Positions 44,223 through 56,248 of a stretch of 64,000 bases of DNA are shown here, one piece after another. The stretch is from Oceanidesulfovibrio marinus (GTDB taxonomy: Bacteria; Desulfobacterota; Desulfovibrionia; Desulfovibrionales; Desulfovibrionaceae): assembly GCF_013085545.1 (NCBI RefSeq), contig NZ_CP039543.1:2633322-2697321 (forward strand), read 5' to 3'. The translations under genes and the position numbers were made by a program. The stretch's first letter is position 1. Every line of letters starts with the position of its first letter. A model generated the notes under the pieces. That model was not told the origin of the DNA. It made no database searches and saw nothing but the letters and a program-made list of their open reading frames with translations.

Positions 44223-45359
44223 TCAGCTTCCGACTGTCTGCTCGCCCTGCATCTCGTCCAGAGCCTGCGCTACGGCCTTCAGCAGACCCGGCACATCCTG
44301 CGGCCCGAATTCGCCGATGGTGCCGATGCGGAATGTGGCCGCGCCAGTGACCTTGCCGGGGTAGATGACGTAGCCCATCGCCTTGAGGCGGCTGTAGAAC
44401 TCGCCGAACTCGAAAGCGCCTGTCTCCGGATAGAGAAATGACGTGATGATGGGCGATTGCAGAACGTCCGGCAGCAGCGTGCGGAAGCCCAGCTCGCGCA
44501 AGCCCTGCACCAGCAGGCGCTGGTTCTCGCTGTACCGGGCGTGCCGCGCGGCCACGCCTCCCTCGGCCTGAAGCTCGTCCAGGGCCTGGGCAAAGGCGCG
44601 CACCACGTGCGTAGGCGAGGTGAACCGCCACTTGCCGCCCTTGTCCTCCATCACCTTCCACTGCTCATAGGCGTCCAGGGAGAGCGACCGCGCCCTGCCC
44701 TCCAGCGTTTCCATCTCCGAACGCCTGGCCAGGATGAAGCCGAAGCCAGGCACGCCCTGAATGCACTTGTTCGCGCTGGATACCAGGAAGTCCGCGCCGA
44801 TGCCGGCCATATCCATGGGGATGCCGCCAAAGCTCGACATGGCGTCCACGATGTAGATGCGGCCAGCCTCCTTGACCACGCTGCCGATGGCCTCCACCGG
44901 GTTGAGCATACCGGTGGTGGTCTCGCAGTGGACCACGGCCACGTGGCTGATGGTGGGATCGTTTGCCAGCTCCTCCCGCACCACGCCCGGCTCCACGGCG
45001 TCTGTCTCGCCGAAGTCCAGCATGGTGGCCTGAATGCCGGCGCGCTCGGCGATCCGGGCCATGCGCTCACCGTAGTGGCCGTTGGCCAGCACCAGCAAAT
45101 GGCCGTCATCCGGCACGGCAGTGGTGATGCACGACTCCACGGAAAAGGTGCCGCTGCCCTGCATGAGCACGCTGGTGTAGCCGGGCGTATCCGTGGCCAG
45201 GGCCACCAGCCGGCTGCGCACTGCCTGGACGATGTCGTTGTACTCCGCGTCCCAGGTGCACCAGTCGCGGAACATGGCCGCACGCACGGACTTGCTTGTG
45301 GAGAGCGGGCCGGGCGTCAGCAACACGTAGGGGTTGTCGGGCATCAGGTTCAGGTCCAT
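44223..45359 (-). CDS. phnW: 2-aminoethylphosphonate--pyruvate transaminase
   Basis: 378 aa class-V aminotransferase. Strong collinear similarity to PhnW (LLTPGPL, DAMSSFGGIPMD, SANKCIQGVPGFGF, GKWRFTSPTH, GGVAARH). Confidence 0.9.
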   Translation of the reverse strand: MDLNLMPDNPYVLLTPGPLSTSKSVRAAMFRDWCTWDAEYNDIVQAVRSRLVALATDTPGYTSVLMQGSGTFSVESCITTAVPDDGHLLVLANGHYGERMARIAERAGIQATMLDFGETDAVEPGVVREELANDPTISHVAVVHCETTTGMLNPVEAIGSVVKEAGRIYIVDAMSSFGGIPMDMAGIGADFLVSSANKCIQGVPGFGFILARRSEMETLEGRARSLSLDAYEQWKVMEDKGGKWRFTSPTHVVRAFAQALDELQAEGGVAARHARYSENQRLLVQGLRELGFRTLLPDVLQSPIITSFLYPETGAFEFGEFYSRLKAMGYVIYPGKVTGAATFRIGTIGEFGPQDVPGLLKAVAQALDEMQGEQTVGS

Positions 45360-45376
45360 TCGGTTCGTTTCCTTTG

Positions 45377-46774
45377 TCAGGCTGTGGGATGATCCAGGGC
45401 ATGGGCCAGACCCGCCGCGACGATATCCGCCGCGAGGTCCAGGTCCTGTGTGTCGATATTCAGCGGCGGCGTAAGCGTGAGCACCACGCCGTGGGAGGTC
45501 TTGAAAGACAGGCCGCGCTCCAGGCAGGCGTACATGACGCGGTCCGCAAGATCGCGCGCAGCCTCCTTGCCGTCGGGATGGCGCAGCTCCACGGCAAGGG
45601 TCAGGCCCAGACCGCGGATGTCCGTAATGACCGCGTCCAGGCGAGGATCGTTGCGCATGGCCTGCAAGCGTTCGAGCAGATACGCGCCGCTTTCCGCCGA
45701 CCGGGTCACGAGGTCTTCGCGCTCAATAGTCTCCAGCACGGCCAGTCCGCAGGCCGCGCCGATGGGCGACTTCTCGTGCGTGTAGTGGCCCAGCGCTGCC
45801 TGCGGCGCCACGTCCAGCTCCGGTCTGGCGAGCATGGCGGCCATGGGAAACACGCCGCCGCCCAGACCCTTGCCCAGCACCAGGATGTCGGGATCGGCCC
45901 CGAAGTGCTCGCAGGCAAAGAGTCTGCCTGTGCGGCCCAGGCACACCGCCGTCTCGTCGAAGATCAGCAGCGCGCCGTGGCGGTTGCATATCTCGCGCAC
46001 CGCCGGCCAGAACCCCGGCGGCGGGGGCGACGCCGTGGTGCAGCGTATGGGTTCGGCAATGACTGCGGCCACGTCGCCCTCATGCGCCATGACGTACTCG
46101 AGGTGCTCAGCGCAGGCCAAACCGCAGCGGCCGCAGTCCGTTTCCTTGGGGTGGATGCAGCGTCCCGGCTCCGGCGGCGGCACGTGGACCGCACCGGGCA
46201 GCAGCGGACCCACGCCCTGGCGGAACAGCGCTTCCCCGCCTATGGAGACCGCATCCAGCGAGGCCCCGTGGAAGGAGTCCCAGAAGGAGACGGTCTTGAA
46301 CCGGCCGGTGGCGTACCGTGCCAGCTTAAGCGCCATACCCACGGCCAGTGTGCCGCCCGGCGCGAAGAGCGCCTTGCCCAGCGGCTCCGGTGCGCTCTCC
46401 ACCAATGCCTTGGCCAGATTCACGGCCGCGCGGTTGGCGTAGCGCCTGGGGCTGAAGGAGAGTTCCTCCAGCTGATGTTGCAGCGCCGCGACCACGGCCG
46501 GATGGGCAAAGCCGAGCTGGTGCACGCTGTTGCCGTGGAAGTCCAGATACTCGCGGCCGTCCATATCCGCGATGCGGGAGCCCGAGGCCCCGGCAAGGGC
46601 GTTGAGGCACGGCGTGGACAGGGACTGGCGCAGGAAGTAGCGCTCATCCTCGGCCAGGAGCGCCCGCGCGTCCGGGCCCAGGCGCTCCTGCCAAGCCGCG
46701 CGATAGGGCGACTGGTTCACGTCCCCTTCGCCAGGGGGCAACCCGGTATCGGGCCGGTCCGCCTTGTTTCGCAT
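45377..46774 (-). CDS. Class-III (AT-III fold) PLP enzyme, PbfA-like by context
   Basis: 465 aa. DETAVCLGRTG and the Schiff-base lysine in ILVLGKGLGGG. Located exactly between phnX and phnW with 5-17 nt spacers; PbfA (hydroxy-AEP ammonia-lyase) is, to my knowledge, encoded in this position. Confidence 0.75.
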   Translation of the reverse strand: MRNKADRPDTGLPPGEGDVNQSPYRAAWQERLGPDARALLAEDERYFLRQSLSTPCLNALAGASGSRIADMDGREYLDFHGNSVHQLGFAHPAVVAALQHQLEELSFSPRRYANRAAVNLAKALVESAPEPLGKALFAPGGTLAVGMALKLARYATGRFKTVSFWDSFHGASLDAVSIGGEALFRQGVGPLLPGAVHVPPPEPGRCIHPKETDCGRCGLACAEHLEYVMAHEGDVAAVIAEPIRCTTASPPPPGFWPAVREICNRHGALLIFDETAVCLGRTGRLFACEHFGADPDILVLGKGLGGGVFPMAAMLARPELDVAPQAALGHYTHEKSPIGAACGLAVLETIEREDLVTRSAESGAYLLERLQAMRNDPRLDAVITDIRGLGLTLAVELRHPDGKEAARDLADRVMYACLERGLSFKTSHGVVLTLTPPLNIDTQDLDLAADIVAAGLAHALDHPTA

Positions 46775-55310: not shown

Positions 55311-55438
55311 CTACCCAGCATAGCCGCACATTTGTGACGATTCCGTGAAGCCCGAAACGCCGACGCGTCATCGCATCGTAACCGTCGCGCCCTACGGTGC
55401 GTGCTCATACGCGAACGCTGGCACACGGGAGAGCATGC

Positions 55439-56248
55439 ATGGCGGACACACTCATTCTGGTACTCATCGACGGCCTGGGCCTGCAAAGCGCCTGCGAGGC
55501 CATGGGCTACATGAACGCCCTATGCGAGGCGCGGCTCGCCAGGCTACACCCTGTGCGCAGCGAGCTGCCGTCCCTGTCCCGGCCGCTGTACGAGTGCATC
55601 CTCACAGGCGTGCAGCCCGTGCACAGCGGTATTGTGGACAACGCTGTGGTCCGGCTCTCTACGCAGCAGAGCGTGTTCCACCTTGCCGCGAACGCCGGCC
55701 TGCGCACGGCCGCGGCGGCCTACTACTTCATCAGCGAGCTGTACAACGAAAGCCCGTACAACGCCGTGCGCCACCGCTTCCAGGACGATGCGGGCAAGCC
55801 CATCCAGCACAGCTGCTTCTATGACAACGACAGCTACCCCGACGACCACCTGCTGCTGGACGCCGAGTACCTCCGCCGCCGGCACGATCCGCACTTCCTG
55901 CTGATTCATCCCATGAACGTGGACGACGCCGGCCACCGCGAGGGCGGGCACTCCCCCCACTACCGCAACACGGTGCGGCGGCTGGACTCCCTGCTCTCGC
56001 TCTATATGCCGGCGTGGCTGGAACAGGGATATCAGGTGATGGTGACGAGCGACCACGGCGTGAACGGCGACTGCACCCACGGTGGGACCCTGCCACAGGA
56101 GCGCGACGTTCCGCTGTTCGTGGCCGGGGACAGGTTCAACCTCGACTGCATGGAATCGCCGGACCAGACCATGCTCTGCGGTCTTGCCTGCGACATCCTG
56201 GGCATCGAAGGCCACGGCAAGCCCACCCTGCCCGGCTTCTTGCGCTGA
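55439..56248 (+). CDS. Alkaline-phosphatase-superfamily metalloenzyme (type I phosphodiesterase/nucleotide pyrophosphatase-like)
   Basis: Start re-assigned to ATG 55439 (MADTLILVLIDGLG, the metal-ligand Asp motif of AP/NPP enzymes). Also DDAGH and SDHG motifs. 269 aa, compact for the family. Confidence 0.6.
   Translation: MADTLILVLIDGLGLQSACEAMGYMNALCEARLARLHPVRSELPSLSRPLYECILTGVQPVHSGIVDNAVVRLSTQQSVFHLAANAGLRTAAAAYYFISELYNESPYNAVRHRFQDDAGKPIQHSCFYDNDSYPDDHLLLDAEYLRRRHDPHFLLIHPMNVDDAGHREGGHSPHYRNTVRRLDSLLSLYMPAWLEQGYQVMVTSDHGVNGDCTHGGTLPQERDVPLFVAGDRFNLDCMESPDQTMLCGLACDILGIEGHGKPTLPGFLR

Follow-up and report, generated by a model that had tools for sequence, protein, structure and literature searches.

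A locus within the window analysed here (64,000 nucleotides) probably serves, on balance, to import and mineralise esterified aminophosphonates, the ester being cleaved in the cytoplasm before the freed phosphonate is handed on to PhnW, PbfA and PhnX. The expected substrates are phosphonate monoesters that join 2-aminoethylphosphonate (AEP) or (R)-1-hydroxy-AEP through oxygen to an alcohol, such as AEP-decorated sugars or the deacylated head groups of phosphonolipids. Capture of such an ester would fall to the 695-aa periplasmic binding protein (SBP) and its import to OppBCDF, after which the 269-aa NPP-like bimetallo enzyme would cut its P-O ester bond in the cytoplasm to give AEP or hydroxy-AEP and the alcohol. 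For the last steps curated family models assign the roles, by which PhnW would transaminate AEP and PbfA would deaminate (R)-hydroxy-AEP, both to phosphonoacetaldehyde, and PhnX would then hydrolyse the C-P bond to yield acetaldehyde and phosphate. The lysR gene has the esterase gene on one side and the eight-gene operon on the other, and from this placing and the conserved synteny the LysR regulator would be expected to control both. Beyond the family assignments, the whole reading proceeds by guilt by association.

Table 1. Features of the locus, with positions counted from the first letter of the window
Feature	Positions	Strand	Remarks
Hairpin	44168-44201	.	GC-rich, T-tract, stem of 14 bp; separates phnW from the convergent C69 peptidase gene
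phnW, 2-aminoethylphosphonate:pyruvate transaminase, 378 aa	44223-45359	-	TIGR02326, NF010006; Pfam Aminotran_5
pbfA (AT-III gene)	45377-46774	-	NF049939; Pfam Aminotran_3; between phnX and phnW
phnX, phosphonoacetaldehyde hydrolase, 295 aa	46781-47668	-	TIGR01422; translation MTKNTPY...
oppF-like ABC ATPase, 369 aa	47757-48866	-	oligo_HPY C-terminal region; named equivalogs all below cut-off
oppD-like ABC ATPase, 358 aa	48841-49917	-	oligo_HPY region; Pfam and NCBIfam
oppC-like permease, 381 aa	49886-51031	-	OppC_N and BPD_transp_1
oppB-like permease, 331 aa	51036-52031	-	Pfam and NCBIfam
Family-5 / cluster-C periplasmic binding protein (SBP), 695 aa	52116-54203	-	PF00496 (SBP_bac_5)
Intergenic region, 213 bp	54204-54416	-	upstream of the SBP gene
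LysR-type regulator, 297 aa	54417-55310	-	best model TIGR03339, below cut-off
Divergent intergenic region, 128 bp	55311-55438	.	between lysR and the AP-superfamily gene
Minimal NPP-like AP-superfamily enzyme, 269 aa	55439-56248	+	PF01663; divergent from lysR, 128 bp off

All genes named in an earlier sequence-only reading were recovered where it had placed them (Table 1), and they are full-length genuine genes, chance ORFs being ruled out. In order of transcription the minus strand carries lysR, the SBP gene, oppBCDF, phnX, pbfA and phnW (44223-55310), so that a LysR gene and a complete family-5 ABC system do lie upstream of the catabolic genes on the same strand, the SBP having exactly the length claimed. 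The oppB, oppC, oppD and oppF genes overlap or abut, oppF and phnX are 88 bp apart, and inspection of the locus for hairpins and terminators found no terminator between these two. The true start of phnX is the ATG at 47668, a 336-aa ORF beginning at an upstream TTG, and the SBP gene starts with an ATG preceded by AAGGAG. At the far end phnW is adjoined by a convergent C69 dipeptidase gene, and the hairpin between them is likely a bidirectional terminator that closes the operon. The 213-bp gap ahead of the SBP gene is presumed from its position to be the operon promoter/operator; a sigma-70 consensus was looked for in it and none was found.

The assignments of the three catabolic enzymes are based on the curated equivalog cut-offs of NCBIfam, all of which are exceeded. 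PhnW scores 544.5 bits with TIGR02326 (cut-off 400.8) and 548.3 with NF010006 (cut-off 296) over residues 8-371 of 378, and PhnX scores 326.2 bits with TIGR01422 (cut-off 220) and contains the sequence VLDWAGT (DWAGT motif), which we take to be the PhnX form of HAD motif I with the nucleophilic aspartate. The gene between them had been proposed to be PbfA, and sequence comparison bears this out, since residues 16-457 match profile positions 2-440 of 442 in NF049939 with 615.6 bits (cut-off 525); by this curated equivalog model the product is PbfA, the (R)-1-hydroxy-2-AEP ammonia-lyase. A position of pbfA between phnX and phnW has been described before (PMC8154272), and the gene is here flanked by phnX at 6 bp and by phnW at 17 bp, in keeping with the tight one-strand spacing noted at the outset. 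The same three enzymes make up the PhnW-PhnX pathway with PbfA known from Vibrio splendidus and from Salmonella phnVUTSRWX (PMC8154272, PMC10574752), which shares with the present locus both the placement of pbfA and an adjacent LysR-type regulator. The best-scoring model of the LysR protein is TIGR03339, which is associated with AEP catabolism, albeit at 189.3 against a cut-off of 341.1. Whereas described AEP clusters use PhnSTUV, AepXVW, AepP, AepSTU or PhnCDE, the present locus has a five-gene family-5 system with a 695-aa SBP, and a cytoplasmic AP-superfamily esterase is added.

This transporter carries all five Pfam signatures of an Opp/Dpp-type (family-5, PepT) importer above their gathering scores, namely SBP_bac_5, BPD_transp_1 in two permeases, one of which also has OppC_N, and oligo_HPY at the C-terminus of two ATPases. 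The signal peptide of the SBP contains an RRR motif, and an Oceanidesulfovibrio marinus protein automatically named 'peptide/nickel transport system' matches it at 99% identity, but the SBP stays below cut-off for all NCBIfam specificity groups (oligopeptide, dipeptide, nickel, glutathione and opine), the best scores being 102 against 650 for Opp4A, 84 against 393 for NikA, 51 against 1005 for DppA and 37 against 947 for OppA. Nor does it match PhnS/AepX (SBP_bac_6/11) or PhnD (Phosphonate-bd) in Pfam and NCBIfam, where only PF00496 was found. Its nearest solved relatives in a PDB sequence search are T. maritima 5ipw, for which no ligand complex is known, SPH1118, a binder of pectin oligosaccharides, and AgpA, a binder of alpha-galactosides (PMC9314435). 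The equivalents of nine of the ten ligand-contact positions of SPH1118 are invariant in the SBP family (P=0.002), as is a TExxTSDLxxRH loop, while L, Q, S and D stand where the pectin pocket has its four arginines and an aspartate, D575, is gained. These pocket residues are shared by all tabulated members with at least 62% identity, three of which show a single substitution each, regardless of the type of esterase found with them. Since the equivalog scores lie far below cut-off and the solved relatives include sugar binders, peptide binding by the SBP is unlikely.

The latter point bears directly on the notion that the system imports phosphonopeptides from which a peptidase frees the aminophosphonate. 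Opp/Dpp systems do import phosphonopeptides of the alafosfalin type, and the architecture with oligo_HPY ATPases, the C69 dipeptidase gene next to phnW and an M81/MlrC-like peptidase neighbour in 7 of the 80 loci surveyed below would all agree with such a function. It is nevertheless made very improbable by the facts that the SBP falls far short of the DppA and OppA cut-offs, that the C69 gene is convergent, lies behind a terminator and has no homologue near the SBP in any of the 80 loci, that the recurrent partner enzymes are esterases rather than peptidases, and that AEP, having no carboxylate, could only form a C-terminal amide, for which there is no known natural peptide class. Furthermore, peptide digests are not bound by the closest liganded structural relative (PMC9314435).

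The link between the transporter and AEP catabolism is best appreciated from a census of 80 species genomes with SBP homologues, in which everything within 10 kb was counted as neighbourhood. The SBP/OppBCDF family as a whole extends to several hundred bacterial species or more. In the census phnW, phnX, pbfA or pbfD is found at 20 loci, usually directly downstream of oppF, and 22 loci have a LysR gene ahead of that of the SBP. Over all loci compared, inside and outside the census, the synteny spans Desulfobacterota, Alpha- and Gammaproteobacteria, Chloroflexota and Cyanobacteria, and the SBP is very strongly conserved across phyla (65-75% identity). In the closest relatives (70-73% identity) the transporter is accompanied by phnW and phnX, in some cases by pbfA as well, and by a small NPP-like esterase, the genes being arranged in four ways. 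Of the relatives with other gene orders, lysR-phnX-pbfA-phnW is divergent from the SBP gene in L081, which lies outside the census and whose sequence ends within oppF, lysR-phnX-phnW is divergent from SBP-oppBCDF-esterase in L166 and L167, and pbfA-gntR-phnW-phnX-SBP-oppBCDF-esterase is found on a single strand in L168. In L082 the transporter occurs with a homologue 48% identical to the window esterase, a 2OG oxygenase and a PhnZ-like HD oxygenase (TIGR03276, 198.8 against a cut-off of 214.6), and is paired there with a PhnZ-like oxidative route instead. Taken with the phnWX/pbfA loci, this places one transporter family beside three different AEP-degrading routes. This recurrence across phyla supports the earlier proposal of a functional tie between the Opp-type system and AEP catabolism.

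At the other end of the scale, 33 of the 80 loci have none of the counted phosphonate- or phosphate-associated neighbour families, and a refined count gives about 31 with neither a catabolic gene nor an esterase, some of these being short contigs; this should be mentioned as an observation that speaks against an ester reading. Together with the automated name of the SBP, such loci (some 30 of the 80) might also suggest that the adjacency is coincidental, with ordinary oligopeptides or sugars as the cargo of the Opp system and an unrelated housekeeping phosphodiesterase as the product of the AP-family gene. Such a coincidence is however strongly disfavoured and scarcely credible, since the synteny is kept across at least five phyla, rearranged gene orders included, since the operon is tightly spaced with no terminator between oppF and phnX, and since phnW and phnX are approximately single-copy genes that would by chance be expected within 10 kb at far fewer than 20 of the 80 loci.

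The divergently transcribed AP-superfamily enzyme matches PF01663 with 62.9 (gathering score 23) over profile positions 1-222 of 342 and has no NCBIfam match. It lacks a signal peptide and is predicted on this basis to be cytoplasmic. Its AF2 model has a pLDDT of 97.3, and the top 44 matches of a Foldseek search of the PDB are all NPPs (TM 0.71-0.78), among them Xanthomonas (Xac) NPP 2gsn, ENPP1/3 and ENPP6, the last a glycerophosphodiesterase acting on glycerophosphocholine, so that we can be confident of an NPP fold. In 55 homologues D11, S47, D162/H166, D205/H206 and H214 are invariant, which provides the ligands of a two-metal site (Asp, DxxGH, SDHG and a distal His), as in the NPPs, together with a Thr/Ser nucleophile, S47 aligning with the Thr of PSLTFPN in Xac NPP, i.e. 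with the nucleophile position in PSL[S/T]xP. Compared to the NPPs the window enzyme is only 13-17% identical, has Ser for Thr as the nucleophile and Leu for the Asn beside it, falls about 110 residues short of the bacterial NPP and is cytoplasmic, whereas NPPs are secreted.

AP-superfamily esterases are found at 44 of the 80 SBP loci, and at 15 of the 20 loci with AEP-catabolic genes. They belong to three lineages, which are 23-26% identical or unrelated: 32 are PehA/PMH-like, 11 are of the window type and one is of a second minimal NPP type. None of the three types has a signal peptide, and the window and PehA-like types were never seen together at one locus of the census, a pattern suggestive of a single functional slot filled by non-orthologous displacement. 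The PehA-like neighbours have a PCSPAR motif and are no PehA equivalogs, scoring 411 bits against a cut-off of 900. As the recurrent partners of the transporter are esterases, the imported compound would seem to be an ester-linked conjugate; of the initial idea that a larger conjugate is taken up, the phosphonopeptide option thus finds no support, the C69 gene not being conserved. The idea that the divergent gene product frees AEP fits with homologues beside or inside the same transporter operon elsewhere, but 53 of 83 loci with the window-type esterase (80 metagenome contigs and L083-L085) are SBP_bac_6-esterase-permease-permease-ATPase-HAD-IB operons with no phnWX nearby. By context alone the family is not a dedicated phosphonate enzyme, and since it is mostly found in this HAD-IB operon its ancestral substrate may be a phosphate diester. 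It may be added, likewise against an ester reading, that the esterase gene of the window is divergent from the operon and outside it.

The main rival to import of an ester is import of the free compound, the Opp-type system being a new importer family for free AEP and (R)-hydroxy-AEP and the AP-superfamily enzymes being accessory and off-pathway, for example in handling other organophosphates. This would agree with the absence of an esterase within 10 kb at 5 of the 20 AEP-catabolic loci (including L023, L039, L054 and L078; the sequence of L009 ends soon after phnX), which also counts against an ester reading. The SBP identity across phyla and the invariant pocket would likewise fit a single small defined ligand, the loss of the pectin-binder arginines and the gain of D575 give a pocket compatible with a zwitterion, and nickel and opines are small ligands already known for family-5 SBPs. 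Free AEP as the ligand is nonetheless rather unlikely in our view, though to be taken seriously, since three esterase lineages in the same slot are hard to explain without ester cleavage, and since a 695-aa cluster-C SBP, whose liganded relatives bind oligosaccharides, is oversized for a ligand with a four-heavy-atom chain. Small dedicated AEP binders moreover exist in PhnS, AepX and PhnD (PMC8316502).

Ester import followed by cleavage is reminiscent of the Agrobacterium acc system, in which AccA/AccBCDE imports a sugar phosphodiester that is then cleaved by cytoplasmic AccF, described there only as a phosphodiesterase (PMC4526662). Both have a cluster-C 'peptide-type' SBP, an Opp-like ABC importer of a non-peptide and a cytoplasmic phosphodiesterase encoded at the same locus, and the acc system is a precedent for the import-then-cleave reading. 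AccF belongs to a superfamily other than AP/NPP, AccA is not among the proteins that the SBP matches by sequence in the PDB at E<=1e-5, and the acc substrate is a sugar phosphate diester with no subsequent C-P cleavage, whereas a phosphonate ester is proposed here. Hydrolysis of phosphonate monoesters, as well as of phosphodiesters, is known within the AP superfamily from PehA/PMH of Burkholderia caryophylli and the PMH of Rhizobium leguminosarum. The window enzyme differs from these in its NPP fold, its 269 aa (against about 500) and its Ser/Thr-type nucleophile position, and no CxPxR, i.e. no C/S-x-P-x-R formylglycine motif, was found in it. PehA-like genes have also been seen adjacent to phnWX in Roseobacters in a 2026 survey (PMC13608971).

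Biogenic AEP is mostly bound in lipids and glycans, with free AEP a minor part. To our knowledge all characterised AEP importers (PhnSTUV, AepXVW, AepP, AepSTU and PhnCDE) and catabolic enzymes act on the free acid, the bacterial route from conjugate to free AEP is largely undescribed, and the PMH/PehA enzymes, studied for their promiscuous chemistry, have no known natural substrate. Indeed neither a description of the SBP/OppBCDF family nor a paper naming a natural substrate of PMH/PehA was found in the literature searched. With their conserved importer and cytoplasmic esterase the locus and its relatives are a concrete candidate for the conjugate-to-AEP step, and the occurrence of the combination across many phyla suggests an undescribed scavenging route for esterified phosphonates such as lipid and glycan head groups. 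We therefore put forward, if only tentatively and with slightly more doubt than confidence, that the SBP/OppBCDF family, with its conserved TExxTSDLxxRH pocket loop, provides the uptake route so far missing for esterified aminophosphonates and that the three interchangeable cytoplasmic AP-superfamily esterases, the PMH/PehA type included, are its dedicated partners. The relatives of the locus hint at what the PMH/PehA enzymes may do physiologically, and if the proposal is true, PMH would gain a natural substrate and it would become apparent by what route the bound phosphonate that makes up most of the natural pool reaches the PhnWX, PbfA, PbfD and PhnZ pathways. Finally, since the locus is found in an anaerobic marine sulfate reducer and its relatives occur in Desulfobacteraceae MAGs, these findings suggest that phosphonate esters may be mineralised in anoxic marine sediments as well.

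The phosphonate locus at 44223-56248 comprises nine genes transcribed in one direction on the minus strand and a tenth, divergent, on the plus strand, and the gene set, the coordinates and the size of the family-5 solute-binding protein (SBP) given in the sequence-only reading were borne out in every detail. The SBP is 99% identical to an Oceanidesulfovibrio marinus protein.

Features of the phosphonate locus and of other genes in the window
Feature	Position	Strand	Remarks
lysR, LysR-type regulator	54417-55310	-	first gene in transcription order
family-5 SBP	52116-54203	-	695 aa; ATG at 54203 with AAGGAG ahead; 213-bp gap after lysR
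oppB	51036-52031	-	oppB, oppC, oppD and oppF abutting or overlapping
oppC	49886-51031	-	
oppD	48841-49917	-	
oppF	47757-48866	-	
phnX	46781-47668	-	88 bp after oppF; real start is an ATG 41 codons inside the mechanical ORF
AT-III gene (predicted PbfA)	45377-46774	-	6 bp downstream of phnX
phnW	44223-45359	-	17 bp after the AT-III gene
AP-superfamily gene	55439-56248	+	269 aa; start 128 bp from lysR, opposite strand
GC-rich hairpin, 14-bp stem	44168-44201		closes the unit against the convergent C69 peptidase gene
Peptidase_C69 (dipeptidase-type) gene	42382-44160	+	convergent with phnW, hairpin between
RND efflux pair and AI-2E family transporter	35581-40070, 41008-42225	+	
polyol/sugar utilisation cluster	12415-21674	+	
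modABC-like molybdate/tungstate transporter	56405-58665		
Phage_integrase/TOBE ORF	58712-59935	-	407 aa

A sigma-70 promoter scan of 44000-56500 gave 0 sites versus 1.2 expected. There is no convincing terminator in the gap between oppF and phnX; the five minus-strand terminator-like matches are weak, intragenic and at shuffle expectation, and the GC-rich hairpin is the sole convincing one. The LysR gene lies between the divergent units, both of which its product probably controls. The model that fits the LysR protein best is that of the LysR regulators of 2-aminoethylphosphonate (AEP) catabolism, with a score below the cut-off (189 versus 341). LysR T-N11-A dyads were sought in the two intergenic regions of the locus and none was found, and since the only words common to these regions are two 10-mers with one mismatch, no LysR operator is claimed.

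The C69 peptidase was considered as a member of the system and rejected, since no homologue occurs in any of the 80 loci with SBP homologues treated below; it probably has no connection with the phosphonate locus. The RND efflux pair (a HlyD-type adaptor with an AcrB-family pump of 1104 aa) and the AI-2E family transporter lie upstream and are ordinary and unrelated to the phosphonate finding. The ORF adjoining the modABC-like transporter has an unusual combination of a Phage_integrase domain (residues 76-252) and two C-terminal TOBE domains; it is long, has a TTG start and could be two genes or have a mis-called start. The polyol/sugar cluster (ROK regulator, SBP_bac_1, two permeases, ABC ATPase with TOBE_2, short-chain dehydrogenase, mannitol-dehydrogenase-family enzyme and FGGY kinase) is unexpected in a Desulfovibrio-type sulfate reducer.

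PhnW (TIGR02326, 544.5 versus a cut-off of 400.8) and PhnX (TIGR01422, 326.2 versus 220) both exceed their NCBIfam equivalog cut-offs, and the AT-III gene between them, which had been placed in the PbfA niche, matches the PbfA model NF049939 over profile positions 2-440 of 442 with a score of 615.6 versus 525. Its assignment as PbfA is as firm as sequence allows, and lyase chemistry is predicted. The five-gene transporter was likewise correctly recognised as Opp/Dpp-type, since the Pfam architecture is complete (SBP_bac_5, OppC_N and two ATPases with oligo_HPY), and its SBP lies far under all characterised specificity cut-offs (DppA 51 versus 1005, OppA 37 versus 947, NikA 84 versus 393). The notion that the system imports phosphonopeptides, earlier offered as an option, is supported neither by these scores against peptide models nor by the gene neighbourhoods, where no conserved peptidase link exists, and we regard it as highly improbable. 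The AP-superfamily protein matches PF01663 (62.9 versus 23) and no NCBIfam model. A role as PhnA-like C-P hydrolase, for which the sole hint is a 26-bit N-terminal match of one homologue to TIGR02335, was considered and rejected, since the window lacks a PhnY and C-P cleavage is supplied by PhnX in any case.

The SBP was aligned with 13 relatives and the alignment was used to fetch 80 loci from contigs of a set with one genome per species; of 600 stretches examined, at least 584 encode a relative. Neighbours within 10 kb were identified by tblastn with the window proteins and then by independent ORF clustering with annotation, which gave a PehA-like sulfatase-family enzyme at 27 loci by clustering and 32 by tblastn, LysR at 22, PhnX at 14, PhnW at 13, the window-type small AP enzyme at 11, an EamA protein resembling the "phosphonate utilization associated" TIGR03340 family at 10, PbfA at five, a HAD-IB phosphatase and a Na/Pi cotransporter at four each and, beside PhnX, a FAD oxidoreductase of TIGR03364, the family in which PbfD1 has been placed (PMC10590968), at four. 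An M81/MlrC-like peptidase was found at seven loci (a metallopeptidase with DUF1485 and MlrC_C at L041:7862-9334, likewise in L042, L043, L048, L060, L065 and L068); it recurs at more distant transporter homologues (46-51% identity), and several of these loci also have a PehA-like enzyme. AEP-catabolic genes occur in 20 of the 80 loci, usually directly 3' of oppF and in lineages that include Rhodobacterales, Geminicoccaceae, Hyphomicrobiales, Oceanospirillaceae and Caldilineaceae. Since phnW and phnX are roughly single-copy genes this linkage is far beyond chance, which argues that the Opp-type importer is not merely adjacent to AEP catabolism and that the linkage first proposed was largely right. 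Coincidental adjacency of the two gene sets is furthermore in such poor agreement with synteny that is conserved, and rearranged, across phyla that it is excluded in practice.

The most similar SBPs (70-73% identity) were looked up and show four arrangements of these genes. In a Desulfobacteraceae MAG (L081) lysR-phnX-pbfA-phnW is divergent from SBP-oppBCD, the contig ending inside oppF, and in L166 and L167 lysR-phnX-phnW is divergent from SBP-oppBCDF, which is followed by a 272-aa PF01663 protein. L168 has the order AT-III-gntR-phnW-phnX-SBP-oppBCDF-271-aa PF01663 protein on a single strand, with an AT-III protein 52% identical to the window PbfA, and in a Competibacteraceae locus (L082) SBP-oppBCDF is followed by a homologue 48% identical to the window AP protein. 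Divergent from this last transporter-esterase unit (L082:6157-8625) are genes for a PhnZ-like HD oxygenase (TIGR03276, 198.8 versus 214.6), a 2OG oxygenase and an APP1-domain protein. PhnZ-like enzymes are usually paired with a 2OG enzyme of the TauD or PhyH type; the 2OG-Fe(II) oxygenase here is small and belongs to the TIGR02466 family, not to either type, and the APP1_cat protein is lipid-phosphatase-like. L166 and L167 are nearly identical loci from different assemblies that differ by a DDE-transposase insertion between the SBP gene and oppB (L167:12114-13613); in one of the two, the SBP would thereby be uncoupled from the other operon genes. Transaminase, FAD-oxidase, PbfA side-branch and PhnZ-type oxidative routes are all found with this one transporter family. 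They have a substrate in common, AEP or hydroxy-AEP, and delivery of this moiety by the transporter finds its strongest evidence here. From the first tblastn screen phnWX had seemed seldom to occur at one locus with the window-type esterase; the closest SBP relatives changed this picture, since they combine phnWX with another minimal NPP type, distantly related and invisible to that screen.

The PF01663 proteins of L166 and L168 have the size of the window enzyme but only 23-26% identity to it, with Thr at the nucleophile position, and the second minimal NPP type is also found after oppF in Desulfobulbus (L004). An AP-superfamily esterase of any of three lineages (the window type, this second type and the PehA/PMH-like type) lies within 10 kb in 44 of the 80 loci and in 15 of the 20 AEP-catabolic ones. 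The ester-cleaving role suggested for the AP-family gene seems largely right. The window and PehA-like types were never seen together in one of the 80 loci. A signal peptide is absent from all three lineages, the first β-strand with the metal-binding Asp beginning at residue 4-5, and their known chemistry includes phosphodiester or phosphonate-monoester hydrolysis. The recruitment of three unrelated esterase lineages to one position beside one transporter bears the marks of non-orthologous displacement in a step that the pathway requires, and this step would most simply be cleavage of an imported ester.

Since the AP protein gives only marginal NPP matches in the PDB by sequence (E about 4e-5) and none in NCBIfam, its fold was set by Foldseek and an AF2 model built from a 55-sequence alignment (mean pLDDT 97.3, pTM 0.95). 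The top 44 matches in the PDB are all NPPs (ENPP3, Xanthomonas NPP, ENPP1, snake-venom PDE, ENPP5), with TM 0.71-0.78 normalised to the query and 13-17% identity, and the glycerophosphocholine phosphodiesterase ENPP6 is found at ranks 47-48. D11, S47, D162/H166, D205/H206 and H214 are invariant among homologues, S47 being aligned with the Thr nucleophile of Xac NPP (motif PSLTFPN). The window esterase is a stripped-down NPP, predicted to be cytoplasmic. A caveat comes from a survey of its family in 83 loci (80 metagenome loci retrieved by means of the family alignment and three look-ups), of which 53 (L083, L085 and 51 of L086-L165) have the gene in a different, conserved six-gene operon, SBP_bac_6 (about 350 aa)-esterase-permease-permease-ATPase(TOBE_2)-HAD-IB phosphatase, none with phnWX nearby; Providencia stuartii carries it adjoining thiCEFSGH (L085:8359-13665). 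The SBP_bac_6 of this operon is distantly PhnS-like (61 bits versus 310) and its ATPase is near PhnT2 (385 versus 458), and the whole looks like an uncharacterised phosphodiester uptake-and-hydrolysis system. The order esterase-HAD-IB-SBP5-oppBCDF is also present in Gammaproteobacteria. The best matches of the HAD-IB proteins, under cut-off, are amino-alcohol-phosphate phosphatases, and the pairing of such a phosphatase with the esterase suggests that the ancestral job was conversion of diester to monoester to phosphate. The window and L082 have C-P-cleaving enzymes in place of the HAD-IB phosphatase, and given that phosphoethanolamine has its phosphonate isostere in AEP, it would make chemical sense for a head-group esterase to serve either of the downstream modules.

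The best solved relatives of the SBP are T. maritima 5ipw (E 4e-84), SPH1118 (E 7e-78) and the alpha-galactoside binder AgpA, all large cluster-C proteins. We know of no complex of 5ipw with a peptide. The ligands of SPH1118 are galacturonate oligomers; it does not bind peptide digests (PMC9314435). Ten ligand-contact residues of SPH1118 were mapped via a HMMER alignment, the numbering being verified by residue identity (10/10), and nine of them fall on invariant columns of the 14-member alignment (hypergeometric P=0.0018) with residues differing from SPH1118. The SBP has T132, L136, P298, G403, Q517, S545, W562, D575, G584 and Y678 at the ten positions, and the four arginines by which SPH1118 holds its polyanionic sugar are absent, one being replaced by Asp. 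The loop TESGTSDLLSIRH (SBP residues 128-140) aligns with the ligand-contacting region around N53/R57 of SPH1118; it is Ser/Thr/Gly-rich with flanking acidic residues and may recall the anion-binding loops of phosphate/phosphonate binders. Among 87 tabulated family members, down to 46% identity, the TExxTSDLxxRH loop is almost universal and Q517, W562 and Y678 are retained or exchanged for similar residues, and positions 403, 545, 575 and 584 vary between subgroups. In the tabulated members of at least 62% identity the pocket residues are identical, bar single substitutions in L007, L017 and L018, whichever esterase lineage is present. Speculatively, a pocket whose anchor is fixed and whose periphery varies would suit a family that recognises one head group on different alcohols. 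The extreme conservation of the pocket and the existence of five AEP-catabolic loci without a visible esterase are also in agreement with import of free AEP or its (R)-1-hydroxy derivative by a new transporter family to which the esterases are mere accessories, but the triple esterase recruitment is then left unexplained and we find such a function rather unlikely.

The best-supported model, which we favour with modest confidence, is import and cytoplasmic cleavage of an ester: the SBP would capture an ester of AEP or hydroxy-AEP in the periplasm, OppBCDF would import it, the NPP-like enzyme would hydrolyse it in the cytoplasm, and PhnW and PbfA would convert the products to phosphonoacetaldehyde, with phosphate being released by PhnX. 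The catabolic half of the locus is the same as the PhnW/PhnX/PbfA pathway (PMC8154272) and the regulatory half is similar to the LysR control described for phnWX (PMC10574752). The AEP importers in a 2021 transporter study and a 2023 review are PhnSTUV, AepXVW, AepP, AepSTU, PhnCDE and a Na+ symporter, with no family-5 system among them, and our literature search found no Opp-type or family-5 transporter described in AEP clusters; the importer is outside every described AEP transporter family. Its nearest functional analogue is the Agrobacterium acc system, where a sugar phosphodiester enters through an Opp-like transporter with a cluster-C binding protein and is then cleaved by cytoplasmic AccF (PMC4526662). 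Secreted GlcNAc-6-phosphodiesterases of the EEP family (PMC10704324) belong to another superfamily. A 2026 survey has pmh beside phnWX in some Roseobacter isolates, and the passages searched do not connect it to a transporter or substrate (PMC13608971); nor did the literature search find a natural substrate for PMH/PehA or a description of phosphonolipid head-group catabolism. Comparative genomics thus points to a front end for uptake and deconjugation, unrecognised until now, on an otherwise known pathway. This makes two questions directly testable, namely the scavenging of bound phosphonate and the purpose of PMH, and the recurrent association of Opp-type transporter and esterase would be worth testing for a phosphonate specialist.
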